Source: a phage. Taken from it: a DNA stretch of 64,000 nt. Each line of letters opens with the position of its first letter. Position 1 is the stretch's first letter. The stretch lies in the sequence record PV946933.1, one strand, 5' to 3'. The notes under the pieces were generated by a model. The model searched no databases. It worked only from the letters and a program-made list of their open reading frames with translations, and was not told the DNA's origin. Made by a program: the position numbers and the translations under genes. Below are positions 1 to 56,105 of this stretch, in pieces.

Positions 1-1
1 A

Positions 2-865
2 ATGACTGCTGAAGCCCGCCAGATTCATCCAGAAGGCGTGTTAATCGATGGCGAATTGGTATACCATGAGCAAGTTGAAAAGGAGCCAGAAGGCCTAGAT
101 TTTCTTTTTGACTCTCCTGAAAATAGTAAAGTTAAAGAGTTTGCCGAAGTAGCTGAATCTCGTACTGCTTCTAATGGAATCGCTAATAAATCTTTAAAGG
201 GAACTATTTCAGAAAAAGAAGCCAAATGTATGAAGTTTCAGGTCTGGGATTATGTCCCGTTGGTAGAAATATACGGTCTTCCGGCGTTTCGTTTAAAATA
301 TGATGTACGTTTTTCTAAACTAGAACAAATGACATCAGGATATGATAAAGTAATTTTAATTGAAAACCAAGTAGTAAATAACCTAGATGAAGCTAAGGTA
401 ATTTATAAAAAGTATATTGACCAAGGTCTTGAAGGTATTATTCTCAAAAATACCGATGGATTGTGGGAAAATGCTCGTTCAAAAAATCTCTATAAATTTA
501 AAGAAGTAATTGATGTTGATTTAAAAATTGTAGGAATTTATCCTCACCGTAAAGACCCTACTAAAGCGGGTGGATTTATTCTTGAATCAGAGTGTGGAAA
601 AATTAAAGTAAATGCAGGTTCAGGCTTAAAAGATAAAGCTGGCGTAAAATCACATGAACTTGACCGTACTCGCATTATGGAAAACCAAAATTATTATATT
701 GGAAAAATTCTAGAGTGCGAATGCAATGGTTGGTTAAAATCTGATGGCCGCACTGATTACGTTAAATTATTTCTTCCGATTGCGATTCGTTTACGTGAAG
801 ATAAAACTAAAGCTAATACATTTGAGGATGTATTTGGTGATTTTCATGAGGTAACTGGTTTATGA
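2..865 (+). CDS. 30: DNA ligase, C-terminal part (5' end outside window)
   Basis: ORF open at window start; recalled T4 ligase-like sequence; sits next to alt as in T4. Confidence 0.85.
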   Translation: MTAEARQIHPEGVLIDGELVYHEQVEKEPEGLDFLFDSPENSKVKEFAEVAESRTASNGIANKSLKGTISEKEAKCMKFQVWDYVPLVEIYGLPAFRLKYDVRFSKLEQMTSGYDKVILIENQVVNNLDEAKVIYKKYIDQGLEGIILKNTDGLWENARSKNLYKFKEVIDVDLKIVGIYPHRKDPTKAGGFILESECGKIKVNAGSGLKDKAGVKSHELDRTRIMENQNYYIGKILECECNGWLKSDGRTDYVKLFLPIAIRLREDKTKANTFEDVFGDFHEVTGL

Positions 866-1050
866 AAGCTTACTTAGAAACAATTGTCATTGCTCAAAAA
901 GAAGGTGGAGATGTTTCTACTTCGGTATCACAAGTCATTCTCGAATTTGTAGATGCATATGCTTATAATAAATTTACAGAAACATTTGATGCCTACGAAA
1001 AAGGTCCAAAGTTTGAAATATATCGTACTCTCTTACCACTAGATTATTAA
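862..1050 (+). CDS. hypothetical small protein (62 aa)
   Basis: ORF start overlaps ligase stop (ATGA junction); no recognisable motif. Confidence 0.4.
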   Translation: MKAYLETIVIAQKEGGDVSTSVSQVILEFVDAYAYNKFTETFDAYEKGPKFEIYRTLLPLDY

Positions 1051-1071
1051 AGGCCTTCGGGCCTTTAATTT
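1049..1071 (+). terminator. stem-loop aaaggcc-ttcg-ggccttt followed by aatttt
   Basis: 7-bp stem with UUCG-type loop seen directly. Confidence 0.5.
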
Positions 1072-1079
1072 TATAAATA
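1072..1079 (+). promoter_or_regulatory. T4 late promoter motif TATAAATA upstream of alt
   Basis: exact TATAAATA about 20 nt before the ATG at 1100/1103. Confidence 0.6.
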
Positions 1080-1102
1080 GAATAAACACTAGAGAGGATA
1101 TG

Positions 1103-3157
1103 ATGGAACTCATTACAGAATTATTTGACGAAGATACTACTCTTCCGATTACAAACTTAAATCCAAAGAAGAAAATACCACAAATTTTTTCAGTTCATGT
1201 TGATGATGCAATTGAACAACCAGGCTTTCGTTTATGTACCTATACATCTGGAGGTGATACTAATCGCGATTTAAAAATGGGCGATAAAATGATGCATATT
1301 GTTCCTTTTACATTAACTGCTAAAGGTTCAATTGCTAAATTAAAAGGTCTCGGTCCAAGTCCAATTAATTACATCAATTCAGTTTTTACTGTTGCAATGC
1401 AGACGATGCGTCAGTATAAAATTGATGCCTGCATGCTTCGTATTCTTAAGTCTAAAACTGCTGGTCAAGCTCGACAAATTCAAGTTATTGCTGATAGACT
1501 TATCCGTAGTCGTTCAGGTGGCAGATACGTCCTTCTTAAGGAACTCTGGGATTATGATAAAAAGTATGCATATATTCTTATACATCGCAAAAACGTATCA
1601 CTAGAAGACATTCCAGGAGTTCCGGAAATTAGTACCGAGCTCTTTACTAAAGTTGAATCGAAGGTCGGCGATGTTTATATCAATAAAGATACTGGGGTTC
1701 AAGTAACTAAAAATGAGGCAATTGCGGCATCTATTGCGCAAGAAAACGATAAACGTTCTGACCAAGCTGTAATTGTTAAAGTTAAAATTTCCCGTAGAGC
1801 AATTGCACAAAGTCAGTCATTGGAATCTTCTAGATTTGAAACACCAATGTTTCAAAAATTTGAGGCTTCAGCAGCAGAATTAAATAAACCTGCCGACGCG
1901 CCTTTAATTTCTGATGCGAACGAATTAACCGTTATTTCTACTTCAGGATTTGCATTAGAGAATGCTCTTAATAGTGTTACGGCTGGAATGGCATTCAGAG
2001 AAGCTTCTATAATTCCTGAAGATAAAGAATCTGATGTTAATGCAGAAATAAAAAATAAAGCTTTAGAAAGATTACGAAAAGAATCTATTACTTCAATAAA
2101 AACTTTAGAAACTATTGCTTCTATAGTCGATGATACTTTAGAAAAATATAAAAGTGCTTGGTTAGAAAGAAATATTAACAAGCATTCGCATTTAAATCAA
2201 GATGCTGCAAATGAGTTAGTGCAAAATTCTTGGAATGCAATAAAAACAAAGATTATTCGAAGAGAATTACGTGGATATGCTCTTACCGTTGGGTGGTCAT
2301 TGCATTCTATAGTCGAAAATAAAGATTCATCTAAATACACACCGGCTCAAAAACGCGGAATTCGTGAATATGTGGGTTCAGGATATGTAGACATGAATAA
2401 TGCTCTTTTGGGATTATATAATCCAGATGAGCGTACAAGTATTTTGACAGCACCCGAAATAGAACAAGCCATCGATAATTTAGATTCAGCCTTTAAAAAT
2501 GGCGATCGATTGCCAAAAGGTATTACTTTATATCGTTCACAGCGAATGTTACCTTCAATATATGAAGCATTGGTAAAAAATCGAGTTTTTTATTTTAGAA
2601 ATTTTGTATCAACATCGTTATATCCAAACATTTTTGGTACTTGGATGACTGATTCAGCTGTGGGTGTTTTACCAGATGAAAAACGTCTAAGCATTTCTAT
2701 CGATAAAAATGATGAAGGGCTTGTTAATTCTAGCGATAATTTAGTTGGAATTGGATGGGTTATTACTGGAGCTGATAAAGTCAATGTTGTTTTACCCGGT
2801 GGAAGTTTAGCGCCTTCAAATGAAATGGAAGTCATTTTGCCACGTGGATTAATGGTCAAAATTAATAAAATAACCGATGCATCTTACAATGATGGAACAG
2901 TTAAAACTAACAACAAGCTTATTCAAGCTGAAGTTATGACTACGGAAGAACTCACCGAATCGGTAATTTATGACGGTGACCGTCTAATGGAAACTGGTGA
3001 ATTGGTTGCAATGACAGATGATATTGAAATAGAAGACAGAGTTGACTTTGCATCATTTGTTTCATCAAATGTTAAACAGAAAGCAGAATCATCTCTCGGA
3101 ATTATTGCGTCTTGCATAGATATTACAAACATGCCTTACAAGTTCGTTCAAGGATAA
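1103..3157 (+). CDS. alt: Alt-like ADP-ribosyltransferase, copy 1 (685 aa ORF)
   Basis: N-terminus MELITELFDE; C-terminal R (LYRSQ), STS (FVSTSL) and ExE (EMEVILPRG) ART motifs; position between 30 and 54. Confidence 0.8.
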   Translation: MELITELFDEDTTLPITNLNPKKKIPQIFSVHVDDAIEQPGFRLCTYTSGGDTNRDLKMGDKMMHIVPFTLTAKGSIAKLKGLGPSPINYINSVFTVAMQTMRQYKIDACMLRILKSKTAGQARQIQVIADRLIRSRSGGRYVLLKELWDYDKKYAYILIHRKNVSLEDIPGVPEISTELFTKVESKVGDVYINKDTGVQVTKNEAIAASIAQENDKRSDQAVIVKVKISRRAIAQSQSLESSRFETPMFQKFEASAAELNKPADAPLISDANELTVISTSGFALENALNSVTAGMAFREASIIPEDKESDVNAEIKNKALERLRKESITSIKTLETIASIVDDTLEKYKSAWLERNINKHSHLNQDAANELVQNSWNAIKTKIIRRELRGYALTVGWSLHSIVENKDSSKYTPAQKRGIREYVGSGYVDMNNALLGLYNPDERTSILTAPEIEQAIDNLDSAFKNGDRLPKGITLYRSQRMLPSIYEALVKNRVFYFRNFVSTSLYPNIFGTWMTDSAVGVLPDEKRLSISIDKNDEGLVNSSDNLVGIGWVITGADKVNVVLPGGSLAPSNEMEVILPRGLMVKINKITDASYNDGTVKTNNKLIQAEVMTTEELTESVIYDGDRLMETGELVAMTDDIEIEDRVDFASFVSSNVKQKAESSLGIIASCIDITNMPYKFVQG

Positions 3158-3160
3158 ATC

Positions 3161-5218
3161 ATGGAACTTATTACAGAATTATTTGACGGCGCTTCGGCGC
3201 CGGTTGTTAACTTAAATCCTAAGCATAAAATACCTCAAATTTTTGCTATTCAAGCCGGTGAAGAAAGCGTGCTTCCTGGATTTAGATTTTGTACATACAC
3301 CTCTGGTGGTGATACAAATAAAAACGTTAAGCCAGGCGATAAAATGATGCATATCGTAATGATAGGTGTTAATGAGAAACTATCATTAGTTAAACTTAAA
3401 AACTTGGGTGGAAATCCAATTGGTGTCATTAATGCGGTTTTTGATACTGCTCTTCAGACAATGAAACAATACAAAATTGACGCATGCTTATTCCGCGTAC
3501 TAAAGAGTAAAACAAATGGTGCAGCTCGTCAAATGCAAGTTATTGCCGACCGTTTAGTACGTACTAAAGGAGCAGGTCGATATGTTCTTTTAAAGGAAAT
3601 CTGGGATTACGATAAAAAGTACGCATATATTATGGTTTACCGTAAAAATGCTAATTTAGAAGACATTCCAGGTGTACCTCCTATTTCAACTGAGTTATTC
3701 ACAAAAGTTGAATCAAAGGTTGGTGATGTTTATGTAGATGTTAAAACAGGTAATGCTGTTCCTAAAGCTGTTGCTGTTGCTGCTTCTATTGCTTTAGAAA
3801 ACGATAAGCGCACGGATCAAGCTGTTATTCAGAAAACTAAAATTAGTCGTCGGTTAGCAGCACAAGCTCAATATTCTACTGTCGATGCTTCACTTCAGGG
3901 TGATAGCTTCGCTGCTAAGAAATATCAAGAGTTTGAATCTAAAGTTCCGGTATATAAAGCAGAAGGACCAATGAACTCTGGCGTTATTCAGGTTGGTTCA
4001 AACTTCAGCAAAGGAGCTATCGGTGGTATGAGAAGTGCTTCCCGTTTTAAATCTAGTGATTATGAATTAGAAAGCTTCCGAAATCATATTGCATTGGCTC
4101 ATGCGCGTTTACGTGATCCATCTATCAAGTTACAGAGCGATATATCATATCAAGGTTCTCAAGAATATTTAAAGAATAAAGAATTTTTTGATTATAAAAC
4201 TGATAAAATTTTAAGTGATCTTGCTGACATTAATATTTCTAATAGCTTTGATGTTATTAAGAAAATTGTCAATGATTTAGTTAAAGGTTCTAAAGCCACA
4301 CCAGATGAAAAGGTAGCTATTGTTCAATTTGTCATGAATGGCATTTATAAATTGATTAATGAGTCTGCTTCTCAAGCGTATGAATATGCAAGTACTGAAG
4401 TAACCCCAAAAGGATTAACTCGGGCTGAGTCTGATGTAATTGAAGATTATTGTGCAGATTCATATGTTGAAATGAACTCGTTCCTTTTAGGTAAACCGGA
4501 TTCTACCCGTGAAGAATATATGGAACGAGCTATTAAACACATCGAGACAATGGATTCTGCCTTTGCCAAAGGATCAGTTCTTCCTCCAGGAACTACACTT
4601 TACCGTGGGCAAGAAGTTACCTTTAAAACTTTACGTCATAATATTGAAAATAAAATGTTCTACTTCAAGAACTTCGTATCCACATCGCTTAAACCAAATA
4701 TCTTCGGTGAGTATGGTAAAAACTATATGGCTCTAGATGATTCCAGTACAGTATTTTCTGGTGAAGGAGAAGGTTCAGTTGATGCTGAAGATTTAATGCA
4801 TATGGGTAGTCACTCTGCTTATGCGAATGAAGATGCTGAAACTAGCGTAGGTATGGTAATTAAAGGGGCTGAGCGAATTAAAGTTATCGTTCCAGGTCAT
4901 TTATCAGGATTTCCATCAGAAGCTGAAGTTATTTTACCACGTGGAATTTTGCTGAAGATTAATAAAGTGAGTACGTACATGATGAAAGAAACTGCTTATA
5001 ATAAGTATCTAATCGAAGGCACAATCGTTCCTCCTTCTGAACAATTAGAAGAATCGGTATATGATGGCGACCATCTAATGGAAACTGGTGAAGTTCGTCC
5101 AATGGCTGGATTTAATCAATTCCTTGTAGAAGAATCAAAAGAAGAGGAAAACGAAGTTTCTCAAATCTTGGCTTCTTTGGTTAACATCAACGGAATGTCT
5201 AAAAAGTTCAAGATGTAG
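3161..5218 (+). CDS. alt: Alt-like ADP-ribosyltransferase, copy 2 (685 aa)
   Basis: paralog of copy 1: conserved N-terminal ~230 aa, LYRGQ / FVSTSL / EAEVILPRG motifs; 3-nt intergenic gap. Confidence 0.8.
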   Translation: MELITELFDGASAPVVNLNPKHKIPQIFAIQAGEESVLPGFRFCTYTSGGDTNKNVKPGDKMMHIVMIGVNEKLSLVKLKNLGGNPIGVINAVFDTALQTMKQYKIDACLFRVLKSKTNGAARQMQVIADRLVRTKGAGRYVLLKEIWDYDKKYAYIMVYRKNANLEDIPGVPPISTELFTKVESKVGDVYVDVKTGNAVPKAVAVAASIALENDKRTDQAVIQKTKISRRLAAQAQYSTVDASLQGDSFAAKKYQEFESKVPVYKAEGPMNSGVIQVGSNFSKGAIGGMRSASRFKSSDYELESFRNHIALAHARLRDPSIKLQSDISYQGSQEYLKNKEFFDYKTDKILSDLADINISNSFDVIKKIVNDLVKGSKATPDEKVAIVQFVMNGIYKLINESASQAYEYASTEVTPKGLTRAESDVIEDYCADSYVEMNSFLLGKPDSTREEYMERAIKHIETMDSAFAKGSVLPPGTTLYRGQEVTFKTLRHNIENKMFYFKNFVSTSLKPNIFGEYGKNYMALDDSSTVFSGEGEGSVDAEDLMHMGSHSAYANEDAETSVGMVIKGAERIKVIVPGHLSGFPSEAEVILPRGILLKINKVSTYMMKETAYNKYLIEGTIVPPSEQLEESVYDGDHLMETGEVRPMAGFNQFLVEESKEEENEVSQILASLVNINGMSKKFKM

Positions 5219-5247
5219 TTTACAAGTCACTCGTGTTGTGTTATAAT
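5218..5247 (+). promoter_or_regulatory. early-promoter-like GTTTAC -35 and TATAAT -10
   Basis: GTTTAC at 5218-5223, TGT-TATAAT at 5239-5247, 18-bp spacer. Confidence 0.5.
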
Positions 5248-5278
5248 AATCTTACTGACATAACATGAGGAACACAAA

Positions 5279-5569
5279 ATGAAATCTTCTTTGCGCTTTT
5301 TAGGTCAAGAACTCGTAGTTGAAGGCGTTATTCCTGCTGATAACGCTTTTAATGAAGCGGTTTACGACGAATTTATCAAAATTTTTGGAACAGATAAAAA
5401 GTTCGGAATTTTTCCTTCTGAAAATTTTTCAAAGCCAGAGCAGACTGAAAGTATTTTCCAAGGTGTAGTAACAGGTAAATTTGAGTCAGAAGCTCCGGTA
5501 AAAATTGAAGTTTATATTGAAGACAGTTTAGTTGCTTCAGTTGCTGCTTTTATTTCATTCCGTAAATAA
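5279..5569 (+). CDS. hypothetical protein (96 aa)
   Basis: ORF with upstream AGGA RBS; no recognisable domain. Confidence 0.45.
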   Translation: MKSSLRFLGQELVVEGVIPADNAFNEAVYDEFIKIFGTDKKFGIFPSENFSKPEQTESIFQGVVTGKFESEAPVKIEVYIEDSLVASVAAFISFRK

Positions 5570-5573
5570 AAAT

Positions 5574-5595
5574 ATGGGGACCGAAAGGTCCCCAT
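5574..5595. terminator. hairpin atggggacc-gaaa-ggtccccat between convergent genes
   Basis: perfect 9-bp stem with GAAA loop seen directly. Confidence 0.6.
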
Positions 5596-5597
5596 TG

Positions 5598-6563
5598 TTA
5601 TATTGCTCCTAATATTTTACTTTGCGAGTTGACAATTCCTGTCATAGTATTAATGTTTGAAATGCTTCCTGCAGTTCCTCCTAATCTACTAAGTCGTGAA
5701 AGCGAATTAGATAGTCCAGTAACACCTCCACTATTTCCGAGAACGCTTTGAATGCCATTTATAGCAGCAGATTCAAGCCATTCAAGCGCAGCTTGTCTAT
5801 CAACTGCTCCAGCCTGCATGACTCTATACGCAAAAGTAACATCAAATGTAGTTATTTGATTATCTCCATCATATGATAACTCAGGAGCGCTCACTGACAC
5901 TGGAATGCATCCGGTGAACATCACAGCAGTATGAGGTAATCCATTACGAGCATGAAGATTAACCTGAATGTCTGCCTCGACATCTTGCGGTAAAGCACGC
6001 AATCCAGTTACTGGGTCTTGAACAGCGTTAACCCAGTCTTGCATCGCACGATAATTACATGCTTCTGAATCCATCCTAAATGAAATAACCAAAGGGTCTA
6101 ATTCTCTCCCAGTTATACGAATATTAGGAGAATTATAGTTCCAGTCAGTTTCATAGGATAATCTATTCTCTGGCATTTTTACGGAGTATATCATCAATCC
6201 AGATGAGTTATATGCCATGTTAAAGAAGTCAATTAAATATGTACCAACTGTAAATGAGCCTAATAAACTTTGAACTGTACGTTGACTCATGGCACCAATA
6301 AGATATTTACTAACTCCTGATTTTCTTATCAGTTTTTGTGTGCCAGCAGTAATTAGCGTGGTAATTCCCTGATTAATATCGCCTTGAGTTAATCCTAACC
6401 AATCTGAATTTAGGCCCAAGTTATTATAAGAAAAGTTGCTAATTGAACTTATCAACGAAGAGCTTTTAGTTGATGGAGTTGTCGCAAAAACGCAGCTAAA
6501 CATATTATTACGTTGGAAATCTGCGTTTATTGCTTGATTATTAAATTCCTCTAAAGAATACAT
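5598..6563 (-). CDS. 54: baseplate tail-tube initiator gp54
   Basis: length 321 aa and T4 gene order. Confidence 0.8.
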   Translation of the reverse strand: MYSLEEFNNQAINADFQRNNMFSCVFATTPSTKSSSLISSISNFSYNNLGLNSDWLGLTQGDINQGITTLITAGTQKLIRKSGVSKYLIGAMSQRTVQSLLGSFTVGTYLIDFFNMAYNSSGLMIYSVKMPENRLSYETDWNYNSPNIRITGRELDPLVISFRMDSEACNYRAMQDWVNAVQDPVTGLRALPQDVEADIQVNLHARNGLPHTAVMFTGCIPVSVSAPELSYDGDNQITTFDVTFAYRVMQAGAVDRQAALEWLESAAINGIQSVLGNSGGVTGLSNSLSRLSRLGGTAGSISNINTMTGIVNSQSKILGAI

Positions 6564-7657
6564 TAAAAAGTCCCCGCATATAAAGAAGCACGGTTTAACG
6601 TGATAATTTCTCTCATAGTAATCTCAAGAGTAAATGTACTAGGGAGGTTTGGAGCAATAGCTAATCCGTTAAAGTTACCATTAGGTGTTTTATCAAATCT
6701 GATACTCTGTATTTGGCATGGGCCAAATATTTCCGTTTTTCCATCAAACTTAGATGTTGCACCAAAGTTTTTCACCATCCAAATTGTCGGGTTTGAAACT
6801 ACTAGGACGTTAGTTAAACTCGATGTCATTTTCTCAAATAGTGTTTTATTTTTAGCTGCGTCTTCCGGAGATAAAGGTTCAATTAACGTAGAACGATACC
6901 AATCATCTAAATACCCCTTTATTTCAGCAGCATATTGAGATTTGCCCGTTTCACCATAAGAAAAATAGTTAAAATATTGATAGATATTAATAATAGCCAT
7001 TAAATCTTCTGTGGAACGTGGAGTCAAATCCCATGTAAACACTTTAGTTCTATTTTCAGCGCCGCCATACATACTTCTGGCTGTCGTATAAATCTGTTCG
7101 TTATTATCAGCCATTATACCTTGTGTTATACTTTCCAGTGCCCCAAATACTGCAGTTGAAGCAATATTACTTAGCACACCAGTAGCAGTACCTCCGCCTC
7201 TGCTGATAAGACTTTCTTGAACATCATTAAATCTATGTGATGATGTATCAACATCAGATTTAGATCTTGGTAAAAGAATATTTGCAACAGGGGCTTTACT
7301 TATTGTTCCTGAATTATTATCTGATATTAATCCATTTGACAGTTTTGATACTGTATTACTGATAGTGTTTCTGGCTGTACGTAAAATACTCGAAGATGAA
7401 GAAGAGTAGTTAGATCTCATCGATCTAAGACTTCCAGAATCCCTAGATGACATATTGTATGCAGTAAATAATAATCCATTCTTATATAGATCTGTTACCT
7501 GGAAGTCCCCTGTAGTGTCATTACCACTAGCACGCCCAGTTGGAAACTGGGCAGTGTATGTTTTAGTTCCTACTTCTGATTTAGTACTCTGTCCGGCTGA
7601 AATTTTCTCACCGGACTTTTTAATTAAATCAGCAGTTATTTCTTTAACAATTGCCAT
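6563..7657 (-). CDS. 48: baseplate tail-tube cap gp48
   Basis: length 364 aa and order. Confidence 0.8.
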   Translation of the reverse strand: MAIVKEITADLIKKSGEKISAGQSTKSEVGTKTYTAQFPTGRASGNDTTGDFQVTDLYKNGLLFTAYNMSSRDSGSLRSMRSNYSSSSSSILRTARNTISNTVSKLSNGLISDNNSGTISKAPVANILLPRSKSDVDTSSHRFNDVQESLISRGGGTATGVLSNIASTAVFGALESITQGIMADNNEQIYTTARSMYGGAENRTKVFTWDLTPRSTEDLMAIINIYQYFNYFSYGETGKSQYAAEIKGYLDDWYRSTLIEPLSPEDAAKNKTLFEKMTSSLTNVLVVSNPTIWMVKNFGATSKFDGKTEIFGPCQIQSIRFDKTPNGNFNGLAIAPNLPSTFTLEITMREIITLNRASLYAGTF

Positions 7658-7665
7658 ATTATTCC

Positions 7666-9438
7666 TTAATTAACTCCAGTCGCATCAAATACACCAGGAG
7701 CAGTCGTGCTCGTTACGGGTGTCATATTATGAACGACAGTATTTTTCTTAATAACATTATTAGTATTATTGATTGAAGGAGATGCTTGTTGAACAGGAGC
7801 TTGTTGTGCTTTGTTCTTTTCAATAACCTGGACTTGTTTTGCTTCTGGCGATTTAGCAGAAGTTTCAGGTTTGGCATTAGGCTGATTTTTCTTGAGCTCT
7901 TGATAAGTAGCATCAATTTTAGAAAATCTAGCAGCAAGCTCTTTTTTAACTGCCGGTGAATTATTTAAATCCGGATCATCCATCCGTTTTTTAAGGTCTT
8001 CATAGGCAGCTTCAACTGATTTAACTGTTGAGTCTTTACTCATATCAGCTGAATCGGCATATTGATCAAAACGATTCATAGCAGCACGAGCTTCATTAGC
8101 TTTCATTAAAGCAATTTTAGCTTCCTCCGGAGAAAGTTGCTTTAATTTTTCTTCTTCCTCTGCTCTCTCTTCATCAGTCGTTAGTGCTTCTTTATTATCA
8201 ACACCACGAATCCAGTTAGATGCACGAGTTTTCCAGTTCGCAATTTTGTCTAGTCCTTTTGCTATCGGACCAAGTTCTCCATTCATTCTTTTATATTGAT
8301 AGTTTGCAACTTTTTCTTGGTCTTCTTTGTTAAGAGAAGCATTTGTAGTATTTTGGAAATTTTCTAGTGCTCTTCCTTCTACTTCATCAGCGGTATCCTT
8401 CATGCCAGGAATGACTCGAAGAATTGCAGCAGATAATTTAGCCATACCTAATTGAATAAGCTCTCCTAAATTAAAAAGAACCTTTCCAAGCCCTTCTACA
8501 ATAGCTACAGTCAAACCACCCCAGTCTCCCGCTTCCCAGAATTTTTTAATTTCATCGATAGAACTAAAGATGCTTTGTAATAAAGGACCCCATGTTCCGG
8601 TTTCGCTAGAGAATTTAGTAAAGTCTGTACTGAACAAATCCCAAGCCTGTGAAAATTTATCTGACCAATATTTGAAATGAACCATCAACAGGTCTATTCC
8701 GACAACAACAGCCAATATCATTGCTGTCATTTTAGCAGCTTCGATAGCAGCACTGACGGTATACTTAAATAACATGCTTGATATTTTATCAGTAATTGAA
8801 ATAGATTTCTTAAATCCGAAATCAACAGTCTTTGTTAATTTATCTAAAGCTTGAGATAATTTTAAGTTAAATGCGTCTTTTTTCTGTTTTTCTTCTGGCG
8901 ATTCTTGTTTGGGCTCAACTGGCTGAGGGGTAGGGAAAAAATCAGCATCAGGATCATTATTAACTGCTTCAGGAGCCGGTAATAAAGGACCCACAGATTC
9001 AGCTGTATCATCCTCAACAACTTTAACAGGAATAGCGCTTTCAACTGTGGCTAAACTGGTTCCTGTTTGTTGAATTCCAGCTGTCTGAATTTTTTGCTCT
9101 AATAAACTCGTTAATTTATCTAATTTACTCCCGAGCGATTCACCGATTTCTTTATTAATATTGTTGCCAATTTCAACAGTTTCAGCAATTAACTCGGAAC
9201 CAGCAGTAGTATCACTCACTGCGTTTTCTACGTTGTCAATTGCTCCAATTATTTCATTCGATTTTTCTTCGACAGTTTGAGCAATTAGTTCAGAAGCAGC
9301 TTGAGCATCATCCAATTTCGTAGATATATCGTTAAGTCCAGATAAAGTATTAGAAGCGGATTTAGCCGCTTCCTGTGTTGGTTTATTATCTGAAATAACT
9401 TTTCTACGCATCGTTTGCATTTCTTGTGGCTTTTTCAT
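7666..9438 (-). CDS. 29: baseplate hub / tail length determinator gp29
   Basis: 590 aa as in T4; order. Confidence 0.8.
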   Translation of the reverse strand: MKKPQEMQTMRRKVISDNKPTQEAAKSASNTLSGLNDISTKLDDAQAASELIAQTVEEKSNEIIGAIDNVENAVSDTTAGSELIAETVEIGNNINKEIGESLGSKLDKLTSLLEQKIQTAGIQQTGTSLATVESAIPVKVVEDDTAESVGPLLPAPEAVNNDPDADFFPTPQPVEPKQESPEEKQKKDAFNLKLSQALDKLTKTVDFGFKKSISITDKISSMLFKYTVSAAIEAAKMTAMILAVVVGIDLLMVHFKYWSDKFSQAWDLFSTDFTKFSSETGTWGPLLQSIFSSIDEIKKFWEAGDWGGLTVAIVEGLGKVLFNLGELIQLGMAKLSAAILRVIPGMKDTADEVEGRALENFQNTTNASLNKEDQEKVANYQYKRMNGELGPIAKGLDKIANWKTRASNWIRGVDNKEALTTDEERAEEEEKLKQLSPEEAKIALMKANEARAAMNRFDQYADSADMSKDSTVKSVEAAYEDLKKRMDDPDLNNSPAVKKELAARFSKIDATYQELKKNQPNAKPETSAKSPEAKQVQVIEKNKAQQAPVQQASPSINNTNNVIKKNTVVHNMTPVTSTTAPGVFDATGVN

Positions 9439-55273: not shown

Positions 55274-55346
55274 TGGGAATTAGCCAAGTTGGTAAGGCAT
55301 AGCATTTTGACTGCTAGATGCAAAGGTTCGAGTCCTTTATTCCCAG
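55274..55346 (+). tRNA. tRNA-Gln (anticodon UUG)
   Basis: cloverleaf read by eye: acceptor tgggaat/attccca, anticodon loop ttTTGac. Confidence 0.85.
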
Positions 55347-55347
55347 C

Positions 55348-55434
55348 GCGAGAATGGTCAAATTGGTAAAGGCACAGCACTTAAAATGCTGCGGAATGAT
55401 TTCCTTGTGGGTTCGAGTCCCACTTCTCGCACCA
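55348..55434 (+). tRNA. tRNA-Leu (UAA), type II, CCA encoded
   Basis: acceptor gcgagaa/ttctcgc; loop cTTAAaa; long variable arm. Confidence 0.85.
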
Positions 55435-55439
55435 AATTT

Positions 55440-55513
<74 letters not shown>

Positions 55514-55523
55514 ATTTAATTTA

Positions 55524-55597
55524 CTCCGTGTAGCTCAGTTTGGTAGAGCGCCTGATTTGGGATCAGGAGGTCCAAGGTTCAAATCCTTGTATGGAGA
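55524..55597 (+). tRNA. tRNA-Pro (UGG)
   Basis: tagctcagtttggtagagc D-arm; loop tTTGGGa. Confidence 0.85.
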
Positions 55598-55599
55598 CT

Positions 55600-55689
55600 G
55601 GAGGCGTGGCAGAGTGGTTTAATGCACCGGTCTTGAAAACCGGCAGTCGCTCCGGCGACTCATAGGTTCAAATCCTATCGCCTCCGCCA
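55600..55689 (+). tRNA. tRNA-Ser (UGA), type II
   Basis: acceptor ggaggcg/cgcctcc; loop cTTGAaa; long variable arm. Confidence 0.85.
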
Positions 55690-55694
55690 GTTTT

Positions 55695-55770
55695 GCTGAT
55701 TTAGCTCAGTAGGTAGAGCAACTCACTTGTAATGAGAAGGTCGGCGGTTCGATTCCGTCAATCAGCACCA
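55695..55770 (+). tRNA. tRNA-Thr (UGU)
   Basis: acceptor gctgatt/aatcagc; loop cTTGTAa. Confidence 0.85.
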
Positions 55771-55771
55771 A

Positions 55772-55846
55772 GGCCCTGTAGCTGGAAGGTTCAAGCAAGC
55801 GACTCATAATCGCCAGATGGTGGTTCAATTCCACCCAGGGCCACCA
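55772..55846 (+). tRNA. tRNA-Ile (CAU, lysidine type) or Met
   Basis: acceptor ggccctg/cagggcc; loop cTCATAa. Confidence 0.75.
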
Positions 55847-55859
55847 AATTAAGAATTAA

Positions 55860-55946
55860 GGGGAGTTATCCCGTAGAGGTAGCGGTGTGGACTGTAAATC
55901 CATTGTCATTGCGACTCGGGTGGTTCGACTCCATCACTCCCCACCA
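55860..55946 (+). tRNA. tRNA-Tyr (GUA), type II
   Basis: acceptor ggggagt/actcccc; loop cTGTAaa; long variable arm. Confidence 0.8.
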
Positions 55947-55950
55947 ATTT

Positions 55951-56025
55951 GGATGTGTAGCTCAATGGCAGAGCGATCGCCTGTTAAGCGATTGGTTATA
56001 GGTTCGAATCCTATCACGTCCGCCA
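55951..56025 (+). tRNA. tRNA-Asn (GUU)
   Basis: acceptor ggatgtg/cacgtcc; loop cTGTTAa. Confidence 0.8.
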
Positions 56026-56029
56026 AATC

Positions 56030-56105
56030 CGAGGCATAGCTCAGAAGGAAGAGCAAGGACCTTCTAAGTCCTGGGTCGTAGGTTCGATCCCTACTGCCTC
56101 GACCA
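56030..56105 (+). tRNA. tRNA-Arg (UCU)
   Basis: acceptor cgaggca/tgcctcg; loop cTTCTAa. Confidence 0.85.

Follow-up and report, generated by a model that had tools for sequence, protein, structure and literature searches.

The question raised by this locus is whether a T4-like phage with two adjacent alt-like genes delivers two different ADP-ribosyltransferases into its host. The genes lie in a 64,000-nucleotide stretch of phage DNA (sequence record PV946933.1), referred to here as the window; the segment analysed, positions 1-9000, is T4-like (Tequatrovirus) and runs in reverse orientation relative to the T4 map. The reading favored here, with a probability of roughly 0.6, is that this is the alt-alt2 operon normal for Tequatrovirus, encoding two old mono-ADP-ribosyltransferases that are packaged and injected and that most likely have partly different host targets.

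The first open reading frame (ORF A) aligns with T4 Alt (NP_049811) at 96% identity across 682-684 amino acids (aa), that is, over its full length, and occupies the same position; it is the ortholog of T4 Alt. The second (ORF B) shares 41% identity with T4 Alt overall. Judged from its alignments, it is the gene annotated in databases as Alt2, alt.-2 or alt.-1, since the Alt2 of Bas36, Bas39, Bas42, Bas44, Bas45, RB14 and T2 has 685 aa, the same position and 94-98% identity. The Alt2 database records give the name alone, and no substantive difference from ORF B was found. An earlier interpretation made from the letters of the DNA, the sequence-only reading, had described two adjacent ORFs of 685 aa. 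Both are present on the plus strand, but ORF A has 684 aa when read from 1103, the position to which the annotated T4 alt start corresponds. An alternative in-frame ATG at 1100 gives 685 aa (MMELITE), and some database entries, for example P0120, begin in this way.

Both proteins match Pfam PF03496 ADPrib_exo_Tox (E 2e-34 for A and 5.5e-20 for B), and PHROG 802, "Alt-like RNA polymerase ADP-ribosyltransferase", aligns with each from end to end. PF26846 Tevenvirinae_ADPRT is precomputed on the 98%-identical cluster of ORF B and on the hybrid proteins described below. The motifs quoted earlier (LYRSQ and LYRGQ, STS, EMEVILPRG and EAEVILPRG) are all present and form the R-S-ExE signature, so that the assignment of both genes as Alt-like ADP-ribosyltransferases stands. 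The R, S-x-S and E-x-E residues do not vary among 17 diverse family members and reach at least 90% conservation across 58 representatives. Each ORF has the features by which the Alt family is recognized in sequence: the N-domain, the ADP-ribosyltransferase (ART) region with R-S-ExE, the locus with its late promoter, and the motifs at which processing is predicted. The two genes are divided as follows.

1103-3157, plus strand: ORF A (alt), 684 aa
Residues 1-6 of ORF A, plus strand: N-propeptide
Residues 7-235 of ORF A, to position 1807, plus strand: N-domain
1808-2317, plus strand: helical centre of ORF A, residues 236-405
2318-2959, plus strand: ART of ORF A, residues 406-619
2534-2536, 2609-2617 and 2822-2830, plus strand: catalytic residues of ORF A, namely R478 (LYRSQ), S503/S505 (STS 503-505) and E574/E576 (EMEVILPRG)
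2960-3154, plus strand: C-propeptide of ORF A, residues 620-684
3161-5218, plus strand: ORF B (alt2), 685 aa
3161-3178, plus strand: predicted N-propeptide of ORF B, residues 1-6
Residues 7-235 of ORF B, to position 3865, plus strand: N-domain
3866-4405, plus strand: helical centre of ORF B, residues 236-415
4406-5053, plus strand: ART of ORF B, residues 416-631
4604-4606, 4679-4687 and 4919-4927, plus strand: catalytic residues of ORF B, namely R482 (LYRGQ), S507/S509 (STS 507-509) and E587/E589 (EAEVILPRG)
5054-5215, plus strand: predicted C-propeptide of ORF B, residues 632-685

Downstream of alt, the T4 record carries alt.-1 and alt.-2, with a note that takes the two together as reflecting an old duplication of alt's first part. 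These short genes (61 and 67 aa) correspond to the 5' 339 nucleotides (nt) of ORF B at 95-97% nt identity. T4 DNA aligns to window positions 3100-3499 at 95-97% identity and resumes from 5199 onward at 96%. It lacks 1 nt opposite position 3320, a frameshift that splits alt.-1 from alt.-2, and alignments and junction reads place the larger loss as follows.

3500-5198, plus strand: 1,699-bp segment of ORF B deleted in T4

The deleted segment is flanked by imperfect 9-bp direct repeats, CTAAAGAGT (3500-3508) and CTAAAAAGT (5199-5207), one copy of which remains in T4. Because of the frameshift and the deletion between repeats, T4 is seen to carry the wreck of a full-length ORF B, the gene that is intact in the window. 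This suggests that alt.-1/alt.-2 are better called the remnant of a full-length paralog than a partial duplication. The statement that T4 has one complete alt was correct; its second copy is the broken remnant.

About 500 phage records match the region (504 in one search and 499 in another). The segment deleted in T4 is intact in 402 of them at 93-99% nt identity, including T2, RB3, RB14 and several BASEL phages, and Alt2 occurs in about 80% of the T4-like phages of Tequatrovirus. The T4-type deletion junction, searched with a 140-nt query and counted as a full match, was found in 91 records, among them the natural isolates ACG-C40, HY03, SG1, F1, slur03, RB55 and RB59. By these counts the two-gene state is the rule in the genus, and the state of T4 is a polymorphism of a minority lineage. 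The novelty implied by the sequence-only reading therefore does not hold: the pair is the majority state (402 records) and already annotated, and a standard two-gene arrangement, which that reading had named as evidence against itself, is largely what was found. The records use the names "ADP-ribosyltransferase Alt2" (BASEL Bas36, 39, 42, 44 and 45), "alt.-2" (RB14) and "alt.-1" (T2), and the protein cluster of ORF B (P0001, 98% identity) has 772 member sequences. Alt.-1/alt.-2, together with duplicates in RB49 and 44RR, were listed as paralogous duplications of alt (Nolan 2006). A 2026 paper on phage 6phi13 described a pair of Alt-like paralogs sharing 43% identity and proposed functional divergence with an expanded target range (PMC13600099). 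The gene pair is not new, since it is annotated widely and both the duplication and the idea of diverged targets have been published; as hundreds of genomes already carry the annotation and what the pair probably means has appeared in print, little is added here by way of discovery.

Full-length alignment of A and B gave 41% identity with an E value of 5e-158, far beyond chance. The N-terminal ~230 aa had been described as near-identical. This was not confirmed: over residues 1-235 the identity is 68% in protein and 67.5% in DNA, the synonymous divergence (dS) is 1.38, which is saturated, and the ratio of nonsynonymous to synonymous divergence (dN/dS) is about 0.2. The low DNA identity and saturated dS indicate that the shared N-terminus is an old duplicate held similar by selection and not a recent copy. 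Recent gene conversion was rejected as its source on the same two values, the longest in-register exact match being 20 nt. Older or occasional recombination of the N-domain may have taken place, as the lineage-tracking tree and the hybrids described below would allow.

The possibility was considered that the central regions (A 236-405 and B 236-415, ~170-180 aa) are distant homologs. BLASTP found no match between them, and profile-profile comparison by hhalign (7 A-type versus 6 B-type sequences) returned a probability of 0.6%, so that distant homology is unsupported. The sequence-only reading had called the centres unrelated over ~250 aa; the absence of detectable similarity by BLASTP and hhalign agrees with this, but the length is ~175 aa. 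It had also held that an alignment between the centres would count against it, and neither program produced one. The ART regions are 35% identical (E 2e-37), as are the C-terminal tails (last ~60 aa, E 1e-9). Relative to T4 Alt, a head-packaged and injected NAD+ (nicotinamide adenine dinucleotide):arginine ADP-ribosyltransferase, ORF B is alike in its whole architecture, its N-domain (68%), R-S-ExE, both cleavage motifs and its place in a late operon. It is unlike T4 Alt in overall identity (41%), in the ART (35%) and in a centre of ~180 aa without detectable homology.

Per-domain trees were built by neighbor joining without bootstrap. The trees of the centre, the ART and the C-propeptide each consist of two clades, an A-type clade containing T4 Alt, window A, Mosigvirus JS09 and copies 1 and 2 of Dhakavirus LHE83, and a B-type clade containing window B, the Alt of JS10 and copy 3 of LHE83. 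The gene order in LHE83 is that of the window, A-type first and B-type last. Since both clades include Dhakavirus copies in the same gene order, the A/B split evidently predates the divergence of Tequatrovirus and Dhakavirus. The N-domain tree instead tracks the phage lineage: the two window proteins share 68% identity, as compared with ~43% between them and LHE83 copies of either type. Two explanations suggest themselves: the N-domain co-evolves with a partner in the head core that is specific to the lineage, or it recombines occasionally.

The helical regions of Alt and Alt2 differ wholly and the catalytic cores strongly, and for this reason the host proteins that the two enzymes modify are most likely different, at least in part. 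Distinct targets are also plausible from what is known of other Alt proteins. On a Mokosh type I strain, phage growth is rescued by T4 Alt but not by the Alt of Bas37, which is notably different in sequence (2025 preprint 10.1101/2025.11.20.689424); in at least this assay, variation among Alt enzymes thus changes their function. The evidence can also be read to mean that Alt2 is redundant, a protein packaged and injected like Alt that acts on the same targets (RNA polymerase alpha and others) and adds dosage or robustness. The like domain architecture, catalytic residues and processing motifs of the two proteins are consistent with this, as are the viable T4-type phages without alt2 (91 records) and the hybrids without the Alt effector module. 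However, redundancy is unlikely given ART cores that are 35% identical, centres without detectable homology and Alt variants that are not interchangeable against Mokosh. The long retention of both lineages, which have stood side by side since before the Tequatrovirus/Dhakavirus split with a dN/dS of ~0.05 for B, also argues against it. Partly different targets remain the preferred explanation for the pair.

Whether Alt2 would reach those targets from the capsid depends on when it is made and how it is processed. The regulatory elements around the pair are these.

1072-1079, plus strand: T4-type late promoter motif TATAAATA, exact match, 23 nt 5' of the alt start
3146-3160, plus strand: A-B junction, with a Shine-Dalgarno-like AAGGA in the final codons of A, whose stop is at 3155-3157, and a 3-nt spacer to the B ATG
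5219-5247, plus strand: sigma-70/T4-early-type promoter TTTACA-17-TATAAT with TG, serving alt.-3; 11/12 match, the best of the region

The motif at 1072-1079 is the sole promoter-like element preceding the A-B pair, and motif scans found neither a late nor an early promoter motif between A and B. The layout of the junction fits co-transcription and coupled translation. With one late promoter, none between the genes, a 3-nt gap, the internal AAGGA and the next strong promoter after B, the two genes look like a single late transcription unit bounded by the promoter at 5219-5247.

T4 Alt is present at ~40 copies in the prohead core, stays in the head and is ejected (PMC9026906; PMC5694885). Mass spectrometry has shown that it is cut by gene product 21 (gp21) after ITE-6 and LTE-619, giving a mature protein of 68.2 kDa (PMC5694885; PMC9026906); the mass computed here from its sequence is the same. 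Both sites are identical in ORF A. ORF B has cleavage motifs at the N-terminus (LITE|LFDG) and at residue 631 (QLEE|SVYD), from which the predicted mature Alt2 comprises residues 7-631 (69.2 kDa) without an acidic C-propeptide of 54 aa. Both (L/I/M)-x-E motifs occur in all 21 of the family members compared, from five genera; in the 58-sequence alignment few columns are at least 90% conserved, and those of the two cleavage-site glutamates belong to them. The C-propeptides (window 2960-3154 and 5054-5215) share a family-wide motif, YDGDxLMETGE, and a terminal K-F; their isoelectric points are 4.1-4.6 and the model confidence there is low. Targeting, tethering and auto-inhibition are possibilities for their role.

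Because Alt2 lies behind the same late promoter as Alt and has the conserved N-domain and the two gp21 motifs as well, it is most likely packaged and injected as Alt is. The earlier proposal that both products are head-packaged and injected is to that extent favored. Alternatively, Alt2 may act late in the producing cell without being injected, modifying phage or host proteins during assembly or serving as an accessory of the core or scaffold. ORF B does stand behind a late promoter alone, and the literature search gave no direct evidence of Alt2 in mature virions. This reading is nevertheless improbable, as the N-domain and both gp21 motifs are common to Alt, which remains in the head (~40 copies) and is ejected, and as the N-domain is the most constrained segment of B. 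Against RB14 and T2, its dN/dS is 0-0.02, as compared with ~0.1 for the centre and 0.045 for the ART.

This N-domain belongs to a small family: at 50% identity, 69 clusters were counted among 1.84 billion representatives. It is joined to PF03496 in 56 of 58 long members and to no other Pfam family, and on these figures the idea that it delivers effectors of many kinds, as in polymorphic toxins or polyvalent proteins, was rejected. A Pfam search of A and B revealed no MuF domain N-terminal to the ART.

AlphaFold (AF2) models were obtained for both proteins, with a predicted local distance difference test score (pLDDT) of 76.6 for B and 72.9 for A. The layout is the same in both: an alpha/beta N-domain to ~195, an all-helical part to ~470, the beta core of the ART and a C-terminal tail of low confidence. 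The central regions of both are predicted to be all-helical. The ART has the C3/VIP2-like R-S-E fold, a beta-sandwich core with an N-terminal helical sub-domain that is superposable on solved members, and the nearest structural matches are Vis, C3, iota and VIP2. A PDB sequence search gave no match for B and weak CdtA matches for A. The C3, VIP2, iota, Vis and Certhrax toxins are 12-24% identical to A and B and have neither the Alt N-domain nor the helical centre nor propeptides processed by gp21. The route of delivery also differs, by the phage capsid for the Alt family and by a binary-toxin pore or secretion for the R-S-E toxins.

ModA and ModB of T4 are phage ADP-ribosyltransferases that belong to the same broad R-S-E clade as Alt (Iyer et al.). 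They are unlike A and B in length (200 and 207 aa) and are not packaged according to the literature. When the ORFs were aligned with T4 Alt, ModA and ModB, A gave 96% and B 41% identity to Alt, and ModA and ModB gave BLASTP E values above 0.9; with phmmer also finding no match, close kinship with the Mod proteins was rejected. ModB nevertheless enters into a further reading, in which Alt2 has a non-protein substrate or makes a non-canonical transfer, such as nucleic-acid ADP-ribosylation or the RNAylation known for ModB. Non-canonical chemistry in T4 and in related toxin families and a B centre unlike that of Alt could be cited for it. It is very improbable in view of the R-S-ExE signature, the protein- or arginine-directed activity of the closest structures (Vis, C3, iota and VIP2) and the lack of significant similarity to ModB. 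Decay of Alt2 into a non-functional copy, for which its loss by deletion and frameshift in the T4 lineage might speak, is effectively refuted by a full 685-aa ORF in ~402 records at 93-99% nt identity, by invariant catalytic residues and by strong purifying selection on B (dN/dS 0.049, orthologs from the window versus RB14 and T2).

The evidence supports the view that Alt2 is a functional, late-made, head-packaged and injected enzyme, its expression, cleavage, packaging, injection and activity all being inferred from the features above. In the alt-alt2 operon so understood, alt and alt2 would be transcribed jointly from one late promoter. Each would yield an arginine-type (R-S-ExE) mono-ADP-ribosyltransferase composed of an N-propeptide, a family N-domain of ~230 aa, a helical centre, a C3/VIP2-like core and an acidic C-propeptide. 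Alt2, made late, would enter the prohead core as T4 Alt does and be trimmed by gp21 after ITE-6 and LEE-631 to a mature protein of ~69 kDa. Retained in the filled head, it would then pass into the next host by injection along with the DNA and there use NAD+ to ADP-ribosylate host proteins. The capsid-entry module would be common to Alt and Alt2, with the helical region wholly and the catalytic core strongly different between them. T4 and its close relatives lost alt2 by the 1.7-kb deletion, and it is for this reason that the model phage shows one Alt.

Several points weigh against this interpretation. AF2 had shallow alignments to work from (16-17 sequences), its models show the central regions as generic helices that point to no specific target, and the (L/I)xE cleavage motifs are short. 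Literature searches found no functional study or virion proteomics of Alt2. Moreover, Alt2 is dispensable in nature, as indicated by the 91 deletion records including T4, and hybrids without the Alt effector module exist too. From this it follows that either enzyme alone suffices in at least some hosts, which would also be compatible with overlapping functions.

The locus itself may be subject to exchange. Window A is 99% identical to the Alt of T2 and RB14 in the N-domain and 92-95% identical in the C-propeptide (dS 0.11-0.19). Between these parts (1808-2962), the identity is 34-35% in the centre and 67% in the ART (dS ~1.0-1.2). By this comparison alt, the first gene, is mosaic within Tequatrovirus. 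Three module types were counted: the T4/window type in ~175 records, the T2 type in ~313-319 and the Bp7 type in ~34. A T4-type Alt with an intact Alt2, as in the window, is found in roughly 84 records (175 minus 91).

Furthermore, four database proteins are alt::alt2 hybrids, each with one clean A-to-B switch (at residues ~50, 105, 185 and 222), so that an Alt-type N-domain is joined to an Alt2-type centre, ART and tail. The four different breakpoints within the N-domain point to repeated unequal crossover. In two long metagenome contigs (L017 5001-7055 and L018 4001-6061) the hybrid is the sole alt gene between alt.1 and alt.-3, and such a single-copy hybrid is the product expected of unequal crossover. 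An assembly artefact was judged unlikely for these two, given long contigs, two assemblers and no long shared repeat. In L016 and L019 the contig stops at the gene, and these two hybrids may be artefacts of assembly.

Tandem alt paralogs also occupy the same locus in other Straboviridae, as in Dhakavirus LHE83 and JS10, Jiangsuvirus PspYZU05, Acinetobacter phage Ac42 and Aeromonas phage 44RR. The two copies of Ac42 are annotated "alt gene duplication", and the duplicate of 44RR was reported earlier (Nolan 2006). These arrays differ from the window pair in that the N-domains follow the phage lineage and not the paralog type, and the copy number varies by genus. JS09 (Mosigvirus) has one copy, of A-type, Ac42 has two, and PspYZU05 and LHE83 have three each, at the following positions in their own sequences.

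L003 6913-11508 and L006 1-1665: LHE83 alt array
L005 5996-11783: PspYZU05 alt array
L007 5986-9961: Ac42 alt array
L004 5995-8082: JS09 alt

It is tentatively proposed that Alt2 is a second capsid-delivered enzyme with its own set of host targets, possibly directed against host defence, and that the alt locus may exchange effector modules behind a fixed packaging domain. The exchange is suggested by the T4-, T2- and Bp7-type alt modules, the A- and B-type paralogs and the hybrids formed by unequal crossover. If this is true, classical work missed Alt2 because T4 is a natural alt2 deletion mutant, and module exchange could contribute to the differences in host range among T-even phages. The practical value of the analysis is as a pointer to a strongly conserved, probably injected ADP-ribosyltransferase in ~80% of the closest relatives of T4, including T2. 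Since Alt variants differ in countering Mokosh, the comparison of Alt, its allelic modules and Alt2 offers a tractable route to the role of injected enzymes in host takeover and host range.

The remaining features of the analysed segment are those of the T4 context. The presence of alt.1 upstream of the pair marks the T4 order gene 30 - alt.1 - alt.

2-865: gene 30 DNA ligase, truncated by the window start
862-1050, plus strand: alt.1 homolog, 62 aa (Pfam PF24647 Phage_blade, E 1.9e-29; synteny with T4 and W143)
1046-1069, plus strand: terminator-like stable hairpin followed by a U-rich run, 3' of alt.1 (RNA folding free energy -13.5 kcal/mol, z -3.8)
5279-5569, plus strand: alt.-3 homolog, 96 aa (Pfam PF17602 DUF5498, E 1.4e-64; T4 synteny)
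5574-5595, both strands: bidirectional terminator-like hairpin in the interval between alt.-3 and gene 54 (terminator scan)
3' of alt.-3, opposite strand: genes 54, 48 and 29

The hairpin 3' of alt.1 directly adjoins the late promoter TATAAATA, so that the terminator and the late promoter of alt lie within ~35 nt (window 1046-1079). In T4, mutants of Alt.-3 with a C-terminal extension evade the CmdTAC defence system (PMC11618068). T4 has 8 transfer RNAs (Nolan 2006, Table 1); window positions 55274-56105 contain 10 transfer RNA genes, for Gln, Leu, Gly, Pro, Ser, Thr, Met/Ile(CAT), Tyr, Asn and Arg.

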